DNA of 64,000 nucleotides from a virus. The position numbers and the translations under genes were made by a program. The stretch covers positions 32,001-96,000 of the IMG/VR virus record IMGVR_UViG_3300047509_000156. One strand, written 5' to 3'. A model generated the notes under the pieces. The model saw nothing but the letters and a program-made list of their open reading frames with translations, was not told the origin of the DNA and searched no databases. This document shows positions 30,665 through 60,851 of this stretch, one piece after another (the stretch's first letter is position 1; every line of letters starts with the position of its first letter).

Positions 30665-30958
30665 TCACGAGACCTGCGGCAAGGGTCGGACGTGCCAGCG
30701 TCCCTTGACCTGGAAGCCCCAGAAGACGTTGGCGTCGTGCCATCCCTTCTGCCACTGCCGGTAACAGTGCCGGTCGTCGGCGTGACTGTAGGGGTTGTCC
30801 GACAGCCCCTTACCGGCGATGCGGTCGCTGGACCCGCGATTGAACGCTGTCGCCATCTGTTCGGTGAGCGTTTCCTTGTACTCCTGTTTCAATCCGCCCC
30901 CCCGGTCATCCGAGGGGGAATTCTCGTCATAGCCTGGCATCTTCTCGTGGTCGATCAT
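30665..30958 (-). CDS. Rmf/CrpP-fold-like protein
   Basis: AFNRG...G.....NPY......RQWQKGW. Confidence 0.55.
   Translation of the reverse strand: MIDHEKMPGYDENSPSDDRGGGLKQEYKETLTEQMATAFNRGSSDRIAGKGLSDNPYSHADDRHCYRQWQKGWHDANVFWGFQVKGRWHVRPLPQVS
30886..30921 (-). CRISPR. Solitary CRISPR-repeat-like unit A
   Basis: ATTCCCCCTCGGATGACCGGGGGGGCGGATTGAAAC; hairpin plus ATTGAAAC handle; same family as unit D. Confidence 0.6.
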
Positions 30959-33426: not shown

Positions 33427-33472
33427 GGTTGTTTCCCAGGCAGCCGGCGGTTCTCCTTGCCCACTATCTCCA

Positions 33473-33572
33473 GTTTCAATCCACAGCCAGCCCAGCGGCC
33501 GGCTGCACCGTCTCATCAGTCCGATCAGATTGGTGGTTTCAATCCACGCCTAACCCACATGGCCAGGCGCAC
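33473..33572 (-). CRISPR. CRISPR mini-array: two degenerate type I-C-like repeats and one 27-nt spacer
   Basis: GTGCGCCTGGCCATGTGGGTTAGGCGTGGATTGAAAC - CACCAATCTGATCGGACTGATGAGACG - GTGCAGCCGGCCGCTGGGCTGGCTGTGGATTGAAAC; intergenic; flanked by a 14-bp inverted repeat. Confidence 0.75.
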
Positions 33573-33597
33573 GATTCCGCCGGCTGCCTGTTGATCG

Positions 33598-35343: not shown

Positions 35344-35380
35344 GTTTCAATCCACAGCCAATATTGCGACCGGACGCATC
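35344..35380 (-). CRISPR. Solitary CRISPR-repeat-like unit C (degenerate)
   Basis: GATGCGTCCGGTCGCAATATTGGCTGTGGATTGAAAC; last 17 nt identical to the mini-array repeat at 33473. Confidence 0.6.
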
Positions 35381-39740: not shown

Positions 39741-39845
39741 GCACGCTATCCTCCGGAAAATCCCCTGGTCCGGCTGAAGATGGCCGGGGAATAGCGTGTG
39801 GCTCAAGTTGTTCGGTTAGTGGCCCGGACCAGGGGTCACTGAGAA
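39741..39845 (-). promoter_or_regulatory. Structured leader copy 1 (behind TTGACG-N17-TAAACT)
   Basis: Similar to 40885..40996; alternative pairings. Confidence 0.6.
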
Positions 39846-41046: not shown

Positions 41047-42306
41047 CGAATTGTCTCCAGGAAACCCCTAGCTTCAGCTATGGGGAGGAATGGAGACGCC
41101 TTCGCCCCCATTCCCGACCTACCAACCTTGTTTCGGACGTTTTTCTTCCGTACAATAGGAGCATGAAACTGACCATTCAACTCCAGTTGCTCCCGACACC
41201 CGAGCAAGCGGCCCTCTTGCTCGACACGATGGAGCGCGTCAACGAAGCCGCCACCTTCGCCGCCAGGCAGGGATTCGAGGCTGGAGTCTTTTCCCAACCC
41301 TCGATTCACAAACTGGCGTATCGCTCCATCAGGGATCGCTTCGGCCTGTCCGCCCAATTGGCCGTCCGCGCTATCGGCAAGGCGGTTGAGACGTTCCATC
41401 GCGACAAGACCATTTGCCCCGTCTTCAGGCCGCATGGGGCCATCACCTACGATCAGCGGAACCTGTCGTTCAAGGGACTCGACAAGGTGAGCCTGGCAAC
41501 GCTCACCGGCCGCGAGGTTGTCGCGCTGGTCTACGGCGAGTATCAGGCGGAGCGCTTTGACCGGATCAAGGGCCAGTGTGATCTCGTCTACCGTGACGGC
41601 AAGTTTTTCCTGATGGCCACGGTGGAGTTGCCCGAGCCGCCGCCCGGCGAAGTCAAGGAGTTCCTGGGGATCGACCTTGGCATCGTCAACATCGCCACCA
41701 CGAGCGAGGGCGAGACGTTCAGCGGCGCGAACATCGACCGCAACCGCAAGCGCCGGGCCACCGCCCGCAAGCAGTATCAGCGAAAGGGGACGAAGAGCGC
41801 GAAGCGCAGATTGAAACGACTCGCGAAGTGCCAGGGGCGCTTTCAGAGGCATACCAACCACGAGATCAGTAAGCGACTCGTGGCAACGGCCAAGGCACTC
41901 GGTCTGGGGATCGCGATGGAGGACCTCACCCACATTCGCGGCAGAATCGAGCCAACAGTTTCGCGCCGGTTTCGACGAAGATTCGGCAACTGGAGTTTCT
42001 CTCAACTCCGGGAATTTGTGAAGTATAAGGCATGTCTGGCAGGCGTACCGTTCGTGCTGGTGGACCCGCGCAACACCAGTCGGACTTGCTCGCAATGCGG
42101 ATACTGCGACAAGGCCAACCGCAAGACTCAGGCTGAGTTCGTCTGCCTGCATTGCTCGTACTCCGCGAATGCCGACCGAAACGCCGCCGAGAACATCTCT
42201 CGGCTTGGGCAAACCAGTAGACTTGCCCCAAAAGTAGCAGTCCTTGCGTCTTCTCTCAACGAAGGCTAGCTGCAAAGCCCCCGGCTTTAGCCGTGGGGAT
42301 GTTTAC
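41047..42306 (+). mobile_element. IS200/IS605-family (IS1341-like, tnpB-only) element 2
   Basis: TCAT|...GAAA-CCCCTAGCTTCAGCTATGGGG left end; AAAG-CCCCCGGCTTTAGCCGTGGGG...TTAC right end, hairpin identical to element 1. Confidence 0.85.
41163..42269 (+). CDS. tnpB: RNA-guided endonuclease TnpB
   Basis: GIDLG / AMEDL / NADRNAA; CSQC..CLHC. Confidence 0.92.
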   Translation: MKLTIQLQLLPTPEQAALLLDTMERVNEAATFAARQGFEAGVFSQPSIHKLAYRSIRDRFGLSAQLAVRAIGKAVETFHRDKTICPVFRPHGAITYDQRNLSFKGLDKVSLATLTGREVVALVYGEYQAERFDRIKGQCDLVYRDGKFFLMATVELPEPPPGEVKEFLGIDLGIVNIATTSEGETFSGANIDRNRKRRATARKQYQRKGTKSAKRRLKRLAKCQGRFQRHTNHEISKRLVATAKALGLGIAMEDLTHIRGRIEPTVSRRFRRRFGNWSFSQLREFVKYKACLAGVPFVLVDPRNTSRTCSQCGYCDKANRKTQAEFVCLHCSYSANADRNAAENISRLGQTSRLAPKVAVLASSLNEG

Positions 42307-55433: not shown

Positions 55434-56252
55434 CTACGCCGTGGCGATAGAGAGCGGCTTCTCTTCACCGGGAATCGGGAACAGTTCCTGGTCGGTCGTC
55501 ACCAGTTTGGTGAGCCTCTTCTGCTCCAGAAAAGCGACGAGTGCCGCCTCAGCCTGGCGGTAAAGTTCTCGCCGCGACCCTGATTGTTCTGGTAGGACTT
55601 CAAGGACGAAGTTTCTCAGGAGGATCGCCGCCTCGTCACCGGGGACCATCATGCCACTCTGGAGAACTTCGCCGAAGCGTTCCAGCATCTTCTTCTTGGC
55701 CTTGCCGATGGCAGCGCGGACCACGACGGCGCGAATCGAAGAAGAAACGAACTTGCCGCTGGGAAGAATCTTGTGCGCCAGTGATACCTGCTCGCCGTAA
55801 GTCTGCATGAACTCGTCCACTTCCTTGTCTGAGATCGCACAGAATCCCTTCATGGCCGGGCCGTAGAGGAGTCTGCGAACAGTGGGGCCACAGCCGCGCG
55901 GCCAGTCCTTGTCGGCGATGCGGAAGTTGTCGTCCGTCGAACGTCTCTGGCAGCCGTCGAGAACGAGGAAAGAATCCTTGGGCAGGCCGTGCATGACGAC
56001 CGAGTCGAAGGAGACGCCAGCTCGGGAGCAGGCAGTCAGTCGTTTCTTGCCGTTGATCAGGTTGTGGTCCACGCCGAAGGAGATGGCCTGGTCGGACAAC
56101 TCCCATCGGCCGTTCTCCATGTCGGACTGGTACTGCGCCACCTTGCCCTCGTTGAGCCGGCGGTTGCGCGGATGGTCCCGCGTCAGCCAGTTCTCGGCCA
56201 TCTGTGGGGTGATGGTCATGATCTCTACCGTTGGTTGCTGCCGTCGCGTCAT
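55434..56252 (-). CDS. ParB/DndB-like domain protein
   Basis: ITPQMAENWL, NRRL, DM..GRW, INGKKRL (DGQHRL variant). Confidence 0.7.
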   Translation of the reverse strand: MTRRQQPTVEIMTITPQMAENWLTRDHPRNRRLNEGKVAQYQSDMENGRWELSDQAISFGVDHNLINGKKRLTACSRAGVSFDSVVMHGLPKDSFLVLDGCQRRSTDDNFRIADKDWPRGCGPTVRRLLYGPAMKGFCAISDKEVDEFMQTYGEQVSLAHKILPSGKFVSSSIRAVVVRAAIGKAKKKMLERFGEVLQSGMMVPGDEAAILLRNFVLEVLPEQSGSRRELYRQAEAALVAFLEQKRLTKLVTTDQELFPIPGEEKPLSIATA

Positions 56253-56303: not shown

Positions 56304-56387
56304 TATACGCAGTTGTCTCCTTCTTGTGACAGAGAGATCGGTAGAATCCAGAGAATATCGGTCACAGTCCGGATGAATCGGCGTATA
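56304..56387. promoter_or_regulatory. Divergent pair of GTCACA-N15-CGTATA motifs (56304-56330 minus; 56361-56387 plus)
   Basis: Two exact copies at the strand switch. Confidence 0.85.
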
Positions 56388-56399
56388 TCAAGTGTCGCC

Positions 56400-56436
56400 A
56401 TTTTCCCCCGGCCAAAATCCGGGGGCGGATTGAAAC
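56400..56436 (+). CRISPR. Solitary CRISPR-repeat-like unit D
   Basis: ATTTTCCCCCGGCCAAAATCCGGGGGCGGATTGAAAC, perfect 7-bp stem, 37 nt, in 5' UTR. Confidence 0.7.
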
Positions 56437-56458
56437 AAGAGAGAAAGGACGGTGAAAC

Positions 56459-57065
56459 GTGGAGACGGCAGAACCCAAGGAATCCTGGCGGATTGTCTGG
56501 CGAGCGGCGGCGGATTTGATCTCTCTGGAGGAACTGCAATTTATTCAGGTGACATTGGCGAGCGATGATCCGAGATGGGTCCAGGGCGCCACGACCAGTC
56601 CTCCCCCCTTTGCAGGCTGTGGCAGATTGGCCCGTGGAAGCCGCCTGTCTGTTCGGCCTATGTGGAGTGTTCAGCGGCGGCGGTTGGGGAGAGGCAATCG
56701 TCTCGGACACTGAGGATCGGTTTGCGAGACTCTGTTTCGACGTGGACCAGAAACTAGGCGAGCCTGCCGGCGTGAGATTTTTGCTCAACTGGCATGATGA
56801 GGCGCCCCGTGAGGAGGTCCGCCAGTCCTTACTCACAGAGATTACGGACGCCATCTCCTCCCGACTGTCCTCCCTCCGCGACCGTCTCGCCAATCTGGGC
56901 GGGCAGCGTATCCTCGCCGAGGTGGAGTTGCAGGACTTCCTCGCGGAAGGTGACACGGGACTCTCGCCGGACCCGTCCCGTGGCAAGGCGGCACAGGAAC
57001 GCCTCGACACCATCAACGCCGAGTACGCACAGGTGCGCGAGGAATACGCTAGGGCTACGGCGTGA
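56459..57065 (+). pseudogene. Gemmataceae-type conserved protein split by a +1 frameshift
   Basis: ESWRIVWR...QGATTSPPP | LQAVADWPVEAAC...LGEPA..RFLLNW. Confidence 0.6.
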
Positions 57066-58622: not shown

Positions 58623-58954
58623 GCGTCATGAACCTGCGCTGGCGTTCCGATTCCAAGGTGGAACTGACCCTGTGCTGGCCGGACGGTCGCAGTTTCGTTA
58701 CCGTTGCCACGAGAAACGGTGATCACATTGACATCGACACGCCTTATTTCCCCGACAAAGGCGACATCGATTCAGTCGAGGCGATACGCGACGTGACGCA
58801 GTGGTTGGCGCTGGGAGCCTGCTGTGCCCAGATGCTTGTCGGGTTCGACCACGCCACACTGGAAGATCTCGTCGCCGGCAGGAAGATGCTCCAGATTCCC
58901 AACCCGATCATCTCCATCACAATCGGGGTGGTGGACGCTGTGGAGGATAAGTAA
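58619..58954 (+). CDS. Hypothetical protein
   Basis: Coupled ORF. Confidence 0.55.
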   Translation: MSVMNLRWRSDSKVELTLCWPDGRSFVTVATRNGDHIDIDTPYFPDKGDIDSVEAIRDVTQWLALGACCAQMLVGFDHATLEDLVAGRKMLQIPNPIISITIGVVDAVEDK

Positions 58955-59454
58955 TGTCAGAACGATTCATGACGCCCGAGAACGGGCTTTGCTCCTTTTT
59001 GCCGAAACGAAACGATTTGAGGTATTTAAGAGTAAAAAAGGAGCAAAGCCCCGAGAACGCCGACGCCTTCGTGGATTTTCCGCCCGCCCGCAAGGAATGC
59101 CCGAATCATCTTCCCGATGGGAGGCTTTGTGCCCGCTGCCACGGTTTCGGCGGCTGGAACCTGGAATTGAACGCCTACCCGAAAACGAAGGAGCAAGAAG
59201 ATGCGATCCGCGACAACCTTCGCAGGTGTCCGGTGACGAACCTGCCCGGTCCCGACATGACGAACGCCGAGTTCCGGCATCACTATGTCCACTTCCGCGC
59301 CAGTTGCTCCAACTGCAACGGCTGGGGTTGGGTCAAGAAGGAACAGGGCGATCATGTCCACGAGTGGGTGGAGAGCCGCAATGTGGGGAAATGCCTGAAC
59401 GAGTACACCTGTAAGACGTGCGGTGAAAGGCAGACGGTGGATTCGTCGGACTAG
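58954..59454 (+). CDS. Zn-finger protein
   Basis: CARCHGFGGW, CSNCNGWGWV, CKTCG..VDSSD. Confidence 0.7.
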   Translation: MSERFMTPENGLCSFLPKRNDLRYLRVKKEQSPENADAFVDFPPARKECPNHLPDGRLCARCHGFGGWNLELNAYPKTKEQEDAIRDNLRRCPVTNLPGPDMTNAEFRHHYVHFRASCSNCNGWGWVKKEQGDHVHEWVESRNVGKCLNEYTCKTCGERQTVDSSD

Positions 59455-59837
59455 CGGATGGTATTGCGCCCGGCCTGCTGGTCGGGTGTGGATTGAAACG
59501 CCTGAAGCGCCATGATCTCCTGTTGCTTCCTCTCGATCTCCCTGGCCTTCTCCTCGCTCTTGCGGAGTTCCGCTGCCTCGATGGCGGCGGCCAGGTCATC
59601 GGCACAGTGCCCGATCAGTGCCTTGGCCTGGTCGATCGACAGGGTGATCTCTTCGTGGGTCGCCGTGGGTGTCGGTCCGGAGTGGTGCATAAGAGGAGGA
59701 AGGGGCCGGCGGATCTTGATGGACGTACCGGAGGCGAGGATCAAGATGGCGTCGGGAGGGAGGGCTTTCTTGGCCATGTGGGACAACCTTACGGGTGGGG
59801 GCGGAATCGGCTCTGGGAGGCGGTAAACGTGGTTCAT
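59451..59837 (-). CDS. Hypothetical protein
   Basis: Coupled ORF. Confidence 0.55.
   Translation of the reverse strand: MNHVYRLPEPIPPPPVRLSHMAKKALPPDAILILASGTSIKIRRPLPPLMHHSGPTPTATHEEITLSIDQAKALIGHCADDLAAAIEAAELRKSEEKAREIERKQQEIMALQAFQSTPDQQAGRNTIR
59463..59499 (+). CRISPR. Solitary CRISPR-repeat-like unit E (type I-C-like)
   Basis: ATTGCGCCCGGCCTGCTGGTCGGGTGTGGATTGAAAC, 10-bp stem with G-U pairs, 8 nt after a stop codon. Confidence 0.75.
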
Positions 59838-60034
59838 TCCTTCGGCTTCATGATGTCGGCGTACATGGACTTGGCGTCCTCGTTGAGGGAGTCGGCCAGT
59901 GACTTACCGCCCTCGGCGCGACGCTGCTCGGAGTATCCAATTGCAACTGCTTGTGCTTCTGGTTTTCCCGCCCGGCGTTCCGTGGCGATGTTCTCGGATC
60001 GTGCTTCGTCCGAAGGGGAATGGTTAAGCGGCAT
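59834..60034 (-). CDS. Small phage protein (MPL...SENI...GKP..QAVAI type)
   Basis: Motif I recognise from phage head-gene neighbourhoods. Confidence 0.6.
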   Translation of the reverse strand: MPLNHSPSDEARSENIATERRAGKPEAQAVAIGYSEQRRAEGGKSLADSLNEDAKSMYADIMKPKE

Positions 60035-60383
60035 GGCTGGCTCCCTCTTTCTCTGGGGCGACGACGGCGAGCAGGTGGCTCTCCGGCATGATAACCAATG
60101 TTTTGCCGTTATGCTCAACCTCGGAGCCCTGGTAGCGCGGGTAAAGGACGGTGTCGCCGACCTTAACCGTCAGAGGGTAGCGGCCTTCCGTCGCGTATCG
60201 CGTCTGGGTCTTGGCGGAGAGCATCTCGGGCACTACGAGTCCTGGCCCAACAGCAACCACGGTGCCGCGCTGCGGCTTATCCTTGGCCGTATCAGGGATG
60301 TACAGACCGCTCTTGGTCCGGTCGGGTGCCTCCAGAGGATCGATGACAACGCGGTCGTTCAGAGGAGAGATCGGGTAACTCAT
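60024..60383 (-). CDS. groES: Co-chaperonin GroES
   Basis: PLNDRVV, TKSGLYIPDTAKDKPQRGTVVAVGPG, VKVGD.VLY..Y.G.E. Confidence 0.95.
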   Translation of the reverse strand: MSYPISPLNDRVVIDPLEAPDRTKSGLYIPDTAKDKPQRGTVVAVGPGLVVPEMLSAKTQTRYATEGRYPLTVKVGDTVLYPRYQGSEVEHNGKTLVIMPESHLLAVVAPEKEGASHAA

Positions 60384-60404: not shown

Positions 60405-60431
60405 GTCACAGGTTACTACGAGTAGCGTATA
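60405..60431 (+). promoter_or_regulatory. GTCACA-N15-CGTATA motif
   Basis: Exact motif at strand switch. Confidence 0.8.
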
Positions 60432-60465: not shown

Positions 60466-60851
60466 ATGAATCACATTGAAGCCTTGCGGAATCTCCAGCA
60501 GGAGACTGGGCACCCCGGTCACGAACTGGGTACGTTCCTGCTCCAGAACAGCAACTCGCTGCCTTACCTCGCGGAGCAGTTGAAGTTTCAATCCCCTCCT
60601 TCGCGGGGCACTTCTGCGGACTCAAGGAGAAGAACGATCTGGACGCACACCGCTGGCGCGATTACGAATTGGTGGAAGTCGGATGGATTAACGGCGTGAA
60701 TCCGAAGACGGCCCGCTCGCTTGTTGAGGCCGGCGTTCTGGTCGAGGACATGCCTTTCGATATGGACGCGAACACCAACTCCCATGTTCGCCTACCACGG
60801 CTGGAAGAGGTGTATCCGAGAATCGGCAAGCCGCTGATCGATGTTCTTTGA
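60466..60851 (+). pseudogene. Hypothetical gene apparently frameshifted at a CRISPR-repeat-like insert
   Basis: Two ORFs join in frame if 41 nt containing unit F are removed. Confidence 0.4.
60585..60621 (-). CRISPR. Solitary CRISPR-repeat-like unit F (type III/I-D-like)
   Basis: GTCCGCAGAAGTGCCCCGCGAAGGAGGGGATTGAAAC, 37 nt, GT start, CCCC/GGGG stem next to handle. Confidence 0.7.

Follow-up and report, generated by a model that had tools for sequence, protein, structure and literature searches.

A solitary type I-C CRISPR-repeat mimic in a phage mRNA leader, one of a set of seven repeat units, is a candidate RNA anti-CRISPR

A single CRISPR-like repeat (unit D, or U5) lies between a phage promoter and the ribosome-binding site (RBS) of a protein-coding gene, which raises the question of what such a repeat does at the very start of a phage mRNA. 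The window, i.e., the whole stretch of 64,000 nucleotides analyzed here, comprises bases 32001-96000 of a virus record that is complete (106,481 bp, with direct terminal repeats). [quoted passage not shown] The order that it had described, with GTCACA-N15-CGTATA followed after 12 nt by unit D and then by AAAGGA, was reproduced at all coordinates, and the locus is composed as follows.

56304-56330, minus strand: divergent copy of the same promoter, predicted to drive the 272-aa gene 55434-56252
56361-56387, plus strand: phage cassette promoter GTCACA-N15-CGTATA, an exact match (GTCACA 56361-56366, 15 nt, CGTATA 56382-56387)
56388-56399, plus strand: 12-nt gap between promoter and unit D, containing GTCGCC
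56394-56399, plus strand: GTCGCC, conserved start of the cassette leader
56400-56436, plus strand: unit D (U5), 37-nt solitary mimic of a type I-C repeat, 12 nt after the promoter, made up of ATTTT, a stem strand CCCCCGG (56405-56411), a 7-nt loop (56412-56418), a stem strand CCGGGGG (56419-56425) and the handle
56426-56436, plus strand: 11-nt handle of unit D, CGGATTGAAAC
56444-56449, plus strand: Shine-Dalgarno-like AAAGGA, at +8 to +13 counted from the end of the handle, not base-paired in predicted folds
56459-57065, plus strand: downstream gene of ~200 aa from an orphan all-alpha family, whose homologues are single ORFs starting ME.WR.VWR

The motif upstream of unit D is a real and recurrent phage promoter, as predicted from sequence. 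Fourteen exact copies of GTCACA-N15-CGTATA occur genome-wide, each oriented to a gene start and all followed by an RBS and a start codon, and up to two mismatches gave 15 matches vs. 2.2 ± 1.5 in shuffled sequences. The CGTATA box and the exact spacing of 15 nt look like those of an ECF-type promoter. Since the phage encodes two sigma-like proteins, the cassette promoter is probably read by a phage-encoded sigma factor, the choice between the two being a matter of inference. The sequence (G)TCGCC(C) recurs at the same distance after 9 of the 14 exact copies, and in the unit D cassette GTCGCC (56394-56399) probably marks the transcription start region, as placed from this recurrence. We also considered GTCGCC as the 5' end of the repeat and rejected it: it follows most promoter copies that have no repeat, and natural repeats of the unit D family begin with GTTT. 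Because it is shared by most promoter copies at equal spacing, it is to be counted as cassette leader rather than as repeat. The same GTCGCC(C) forms the first bases of a common 32-nt type I-C repeat of Planctomycetota (GTCGCCCCCC...), a likeness that is probably coincidental because natural repeats of the unit D family begin with GTTT.

The leader of the unit D cassette is 71 nt long, as counted to the GTG at 56459, which is the first possible start in the frame conserved by the homologues and lies at +23 after the handle. Leaders of the cassettes with the same promoter have a median of 35 nt (range 18-51 nt), so that the unit D leader is longer by ~36 nt, or about one unit. Homologues of the 56459 gene are encoded in 17 viral loci, and among these 6-kb loci only L081 has a unit, located ~530 nt downstream of the homologous gene rather than in the leader; inspection of 13 homologue leaders revealed nothing repeat-like. 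Based on the excess leader length and on these 13 leaders, unit D looks like an insertion into a cassette leader. As the leaders of the homologues carry no unit, it is not a conserved regulator of its gene.

The downstream gene spans two frames in the assembly (56459-56713 and 56565-57065), which the alignment of homologues joins into one gene, with the shift in a C6T3 run at 56603-56611; either a genuine slippery site or a fault of the assembly could account for the frame change. Its product, modeled by AF2 as all-alpha with a pLDDT of 88, had been a candidate for a Cas11-like mimic, and this was not supported. Foldseek against the PDB returned hits of E > 5 only, a sequence search of the PDB gave no match, a wide VIA search reached a best Z of 4.2 with several Cas11- or Cas10-D4-like helical rows at noise level, and hhalign against two Cas8c proteins gave a probability below 1%. 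The protein is thus neither a known anti-CRISPR nor demonstrably Cas-like. Among the neighbouring proteins, searches of Pfam, PHROGs and NCBIfam produced no anti-CRISPR or Aca-type match, and no known acr gene lies beside unit D; the 272-aa gene 55434-56252 matches phrog_5931.

The repeat itself is best matched in Rfam by the family CRISPR-DR9, with 21 bits, below the gathering score of 45 bits. Metagenome contigs were scanned with the stem-plus-tail of unit D, and 27 true arrays with a 37-nt repeat were found in soil and peat metagenomes. Their consensus, GTTTCCCCCGGCCTCACCGCCGGGGGCGGATTGAAAC, is 82-84% identical to unit D and differs from it essentially in the loop only. Two of the 27 arrays adjoin Cas3, Cas5d, Csd1/Cas8c, Cas7, Cas4 and Cas1, i.e., a type I-C operon. 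Unit D also scored 39.5 bits (E = 4e-9) against a covariance model, R1. On this comparison of sequences, unit D is a genuine mimic of a type I-C CRISPR repeat, diverged by 16-18% from the nearest natural repeat. The part of the first-pass annotation that recognized a CRISPR-like repeat consequently stands, and the enzyme is to be corrected from Cas6 to Cas5c, as type I-C repeats are processed by Cas5c and not by Cas6 (PMC8524198).

Unit D is solitary: the nearest other unit is 3 kb away, no cas genes adjoin it, and neither Cas5d nor Cas7 genes are detectable in the complete phage genome. A model scan of the phage found no second repeat after unit D, even a degenerate one, which places it outside arrays and mini-arrays, here taken as at least two repeats with spacers of ~33-36 nt. 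In terms of the definition of solitary repeat units (SRUs) given in PMC10651486, it stands alone on an element without cas genes, resembles a particular subtype in sequence and structure, and is intergenic with a predicted promoter within 250 bp upstream.

Unit D has six relatives in the same phage. The exact 10-mer GGATTGAAAC occurs seven times, always within the window, vs. 0.12 occurrences expected in the whole 106-kb genome. Besides unit D, the occurrences belong to the following features.

30886-30923, minus strand: U1, I-C-like, of the unit D subfamily (CGG handle)
33473-33572, minus strand: one-spacer mini-array with unlike stems, composed of U3 (33536-33572), a spacer-like stretch of 26-27 nt and U2 (33473-33509)
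35344-35380, minus strand: unit C (U4), I-C-like, 40.9 bits with R1
59461-59499, plus strand: U6, the best-scoring I-C-like unit (34 bits in Rfam, 47 bits with R1)
60585-60621, minus strand: U7, of a different repeat family linked to type III (Rfam CRISPR-DR10, 32.4 bits, gathering score 39)

Six of the units are I-C-like, with CRISPR-DR9 as their best Rfam family (21-34 bits; gathering score 45), and they come in two flavours, with a handle CGG... in U1 and U5 and UGG... in U2, U3, U4 and U6. The repeat of a Planctomycetota array adjoining Cas10/Cmr2 and RAMP genes shares 86% identity with U7. Judged by sequence, the repeat set of the phage thus consists of six units that mimic type I-C repeats, in two flavours, and one that mimics a type III-type repeat. 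We aligned the six I-C-like units with one unit of another phage and one natural repeat. In the 9-bp stem of this alignment 94% of the cells are paired and 7 of the 9 pairs have changed on both sides, a result reached by none of 500 shuffles and approached by no slid register. At the tail of the units there is no variation in the last ten bases, and the base before them is C, U or A. The covariance model derived from the alignment detected only these seven sites in the phage. The units have hence been under selection for their structure, with a variable loop and 5' tail, a structurally kept stem and an invariant tail that abuts the stem.

The surroundings of the other units differ. Unit C is followed by tcatGGAGGtttacgATG; the GGAGG of a 34-codon ORF (35328-35224) comes 4 nt after the unit and the ATG 15 nt after it, which agrees with its earlier description as directly preceding this RBS. 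With 7 of 9 pairs formed, of which three are G-U, the stem of unit C is weak (fold z = +0.7). U1 is located just upstream of, or within the 5' end of, an RMF-like gene. The ORF 30665-30958 (minus strand), which contains or follows U1, matches Pfam RMF with 2e-7 over residues 32-75, and if the true start of the gene is the ATG at MATAF..., then U1 is in its leader. The U3-U2 mini-array is found between a Dam-type methyltransferase gene and a 100-aa gene (33437-33590, minus strand). A perfect inverted repeat of 14 bp (CAGGCAGCCGGCGG ... CCGCCGGCTGCCTG) flanks it on both sides, the element as a whole folds with z = -2.7, and its spacer, at 26-27 nt, is shorter than those of arrays as taken here; no target of this spacer was found. 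A hammerhead-like string, CUGAUGAG...GAAAC, within the spacer was treated as a coincidence, Rfam reporting no ribozyme. A Cys-rich 166-aa gene (58954-59454) precedes U6, with 7 nt from its stop codon to the start of the unit. This layout recalls acrIC5-RacrIC1, in which the Racr lies 11 nt downstream; the 166-aa protein belongs to an unknown family and would be a candidate anti-CRISPR by position only. U7 is antisense inside a plus-strand ORF that follows the promoter at 60405, and is located ~200 nt upstream of a minus-strand GroES (Cpn10) gene (60024-60383).

As for the origin of the phage, its window sequence is contained identically in a soil metagenome run, and a search of sequencing runs for the window DNA returned two soil-metagenome DNA runs only, one of which is probably the source, and no RNA run; the contigs of these two runs added nothing on the unit D region. 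The genome encodes a major head protein, a helicase, methyltransferases and a transposase of the TnpB type besides the two sigma-like proteins.

41163-42269, plus strand: TnpB-type transposase gene (phrog_506)

A pair of 64-nt direct repeats, at 39778 and 40933, flanks this transposase gene. Since the phage TnpB has its closest genomic relative in a MAG of Planctomycetota, with 73% identity across the 193 residues compared, and since one phage protein has a Gemmata-type TIGR02996 domain, a Planctomycetota host is suggested, and the phage probably belongs to the poorly studied group of Planctomycetota phages. IMG/VR yielded no relatives of the phage, whether the promoter-plus-leader pattern, the major head protein or the 272-aa neighbour was used as the query. 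The repeat of the unit D type was not found in the 401 Planctomycetota genomes searched. Type I-C arrays with the GGATTGAAAC handle do occur in Planctomycetota, and in one such genome a 37-nt DR9-type array adjoins a type I-C operon. None of 870 array spacers (278 from Planctomycetota and 592 from metagenomic type I-C arrays) matched the phage, the longest agreements being only 17-20 nt, and thus there is no direct sign of type I-C systems targeting it.

In a second virus lineage (G407-G410, known from IMG/VR fragments; loci L207-L223), each fragment of 12-18 kb gave three strong hits of the unit model, which share a strand and differ in their loops. A terS-like gene directly follows one of these units.

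We consider it rather probable that unit D is an SRU acting as a Racr decoy against type I-C systems, carried on an mRNA leader; its sequence makes it a candidate for this role. Of the two answers of the first-pass annotation, the one in which the mRNA 5' end doubles as a Racr is the best supported; the mimic does lie between a recurrent promoter and an RBS. Viral SRUs, or Racrs, are a known class, for which a position just after promoters and type I-C examples have been described (PMC10651486). The strongest argument for selection on Cas5c recognition comes from the requirements reported for Cas5c, whose recognition needs the cut site or stem base and the downstream nucleotides and tolerates changes in the loop and the 5' overhang (PMC8524198). 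Because the conservation pattern of the phage units fits these requirements, the units appear to be under selection for recognition by Cas5c.

The steps of transcription, cleavage, Cas binding and inhibition that we infer would be the following. The unit, inserted in a cassette leader of ~35 nt, would be transcribed within the first ~45 nt of the mRNA. In a cognate type I-C host, Cas5c would recognize the base of the stem together with the CGG... tail, and the cut, predicted by analogy with PMC8524198, would fall between G56425 and 56426. [quoted passage not shown] The phage DNA would be spared, as the matching site is flanked by repeat sequence and has no PAM. The other six units would act alike from other transcripts, and their diversified stems would cover several variants of the repeat (I-C in two flavours, plus a type III family) and avoid long identical repeats in the genome. 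In Cascade, Cas5c occupies the 5' handle of the crRNA (PMC8524198), so that of the two cleavage products it is the RBS-bearing one on which Cas proteins would be loaded. Recognition of unit D by Cas5c is not assured, given its divergence of 16-18% from the nearest natural repeat. Furthermore, RacrIF1 (type I-F), the only Racr with an in-depth study, inhibits through the RNA upstream of its cut site (PMC10651486). As the RNA upstream of the predicted cut in unit D measures only ~32 nt, its mechanism would have to differ from that of RacrIF1.

The position of the unit suggests another role, close to the other answer of the first-pass annotation, in which a Cas5c cut and Cas5c/Cas7 loading alter translation or mRNA stability and the control of the downstream gene is the main function. 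We judge this unlikely. If it were true, the 56459 gene and the ORFs after U4 and U1 would report an active type I-C system of the host. We know of no precedent for such Cas-dependent control of a downstream gene from its leader. The distances would permit it: the RBS and the start of the 56459 gene lie inside the ~35-nt footprint of Cas7 on a crRNA, and in unit C the GGAGG is at +5 to +9 and the ATG at +16 after the handle. The location of Cas5c at the 5' handle within Cascade (PMC8524198) and the greater stability of the 5'-OH ends left by Cas processing (PMC10651486) point the same way. Several of the G407-G410 units, moreover, end 0-3 nt before an ATG or GTG, and on bacterial-looking contigs single repeat copies end 0-15 nt before bpt-, lpdA- and mnmA-like starts, the GGA of the handle being in some of these cases the only Shine-Dalgarno-like element. 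However, intergenic gaps are short, so that any intergenic unit comes near a start codon, and U6 and U3 have no gene start after them. The hairpin of unit D does not pair with the RBS in predicted folds, and the unit is missing from the leaders of the 13 homologues.

It is in our view equally improbable, on its own terms, that solitary type I-C repeats before translation starts (unit D, unit C, those of G407-G410 and those before the bpt-, lpdA- and mnmA-like genes) are natural Cas5c-operated mRNA leaders, in which the handle GGA can serve as a Shine-Dalgarno sequence and occupancy by Cas5c/Cas7 sets translation or stability. Phage expression, and perhaps that of the host, would then be wired to the CRISPR state, beyond any decoy effect. 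The single-copy I-C repeats of the unit D type on metagenome contigs (L142, L141 and L101/L114/L146/L148/L172, before bpt (ATE), lpdA-like and mnmA-like genes) could be collapsed arrays or could represent a wider use of the repeat in leaders, and some are collapsed arrays, consisting of a leader plus one repeat. At the loci with a leader plus one repeat (L094, L120, L149, L155, L162 and others), the final nine bases of the repeat, GATTGAAAC, recur in tandem one to three more times behind it.

To each of two further explanations we give only a slight chance. Unit D might be a one-guide, crRNA-like gene, its handle plus ~35 nt of leader guiding against siblings without the insert, or a Cracr that represses cas or toxin promoters. 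Cracr RNAs, including type I-C ones, have been documented (preprint 10.1101/2024.10.29.618823), as have viral mini-arrays (PMC11656645), and U3-U2, which may have a guide-like role, does form a one-spacer mini-array. On the other hand, unit D lacks a second repeat, the 38 nt after each of the seven units match only themselves among the phage, the 17 related viral loci and the host-like loci compared, and no sibling genomes were found in IMG/VR. The junction without the insert would read GCC, which is not the usual I-C PAM, TTC. The unit might also be a neutral relic, such as the remnant of a captured host array or a site of recombination with host arrays, or else a generic hairpin serving as stabilizer or insulator. 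The decaying stem of unit C and the antisense position of U7 relative to its local gene would agree with a relic. A relic would, however, not keep an 11-nt single-stranded tail invariant in seven copies while the stems covary; seven dispersed copies on both strands do not suit a single attachment site, and a generic hairpin has no need for the GGATTGAAAC tail.

With the decoy as the preferred reading, the locus is in our opinion of moderate interest, for the size and diversity of the set in one phage and for a leader placement by which the Cas-bound product would contain a translation start. Provided that they are active, the units would constitute an unusually large RNA-only anti-CRISPR set, six of them mimicking type I-C repeats (in two flavours) and one a type III repeat. 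They would also offer a clean natural example of decoys diversified by compensatory changes in the stem, with the protein-recognized tail kept fixed.

The closest known system is RacrIC1, which acts as an inhibitor of a type I-C system and shares a bicistronic transcript with the protein-coding gene acrIC5 (Camara-Wilpert et al. 2023, PMC10651486). Like RacrIC1, unit D is solitary and intergenic, lies in a phage without cas genes directly behind a promoter, is I-C-like and would stand on an RNA that also encodes a protein. Unlike RacrIC1, which is located downstream of its gene, unit D is upstream, in the 5' leader and 7 nt before the RBS. It has no known acr gene beside it and is one of seven diversified units, and its Racr activity is that of a candidate. 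RacrIF1 is bound and cut by Cas6f and inhibits interference via aberrant subcomplexes (PMC10651486). Its inhibitor is the upstream fragment, whereas in type I-C the Cas proteins should be bound to the fragment downstream of the cut, which bears the mRNA.

Cracr RNAs share with the proposed role of unit D that a phage-borne, repeat-derived RNA hijacks the Cas proteins of the host, and they include type I-C and multi-unit examples (preprint 10.1101/2024.10.29.618823). They differ in that a second, degenerate repeat is present and that the PAM-proximal part of the pseudo-spacer matches a cas or toxin promoter of the host, whereas unit D has neither a second repeat nor a detectable target. Virus-borne mini-CRISPR arrays are likewise without cas genes and dependent on host Cas proteins (PMC11656645), a layout seen here in U3-U2. 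Unlike them, unit D is single; the repeats of mini-arrays are identical to host repeats and their spacers match related viruses, whereas the phage units differ from one another and no target was found.

Engineered Csy4 (Cas6f) sites between a promoter and an RBS function as RNA-processing insulators, cleavage giving a defined mRNA 5' end. Unit D has the same order of promoter, repeat hairpin and RBS; the Csy4 device is artificial and its nuclease is co-expressed. To our knowledge, no natural phage case of a leader insulator of the Csy4 type has been shown. Overall, the decoy set would extend known biology, and the new point raised by the position in a leader is whether a Racr can also gate the translation of its own message. 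Because the type I-C nuclease stays on the downstream product, this leader is a test case for that question.
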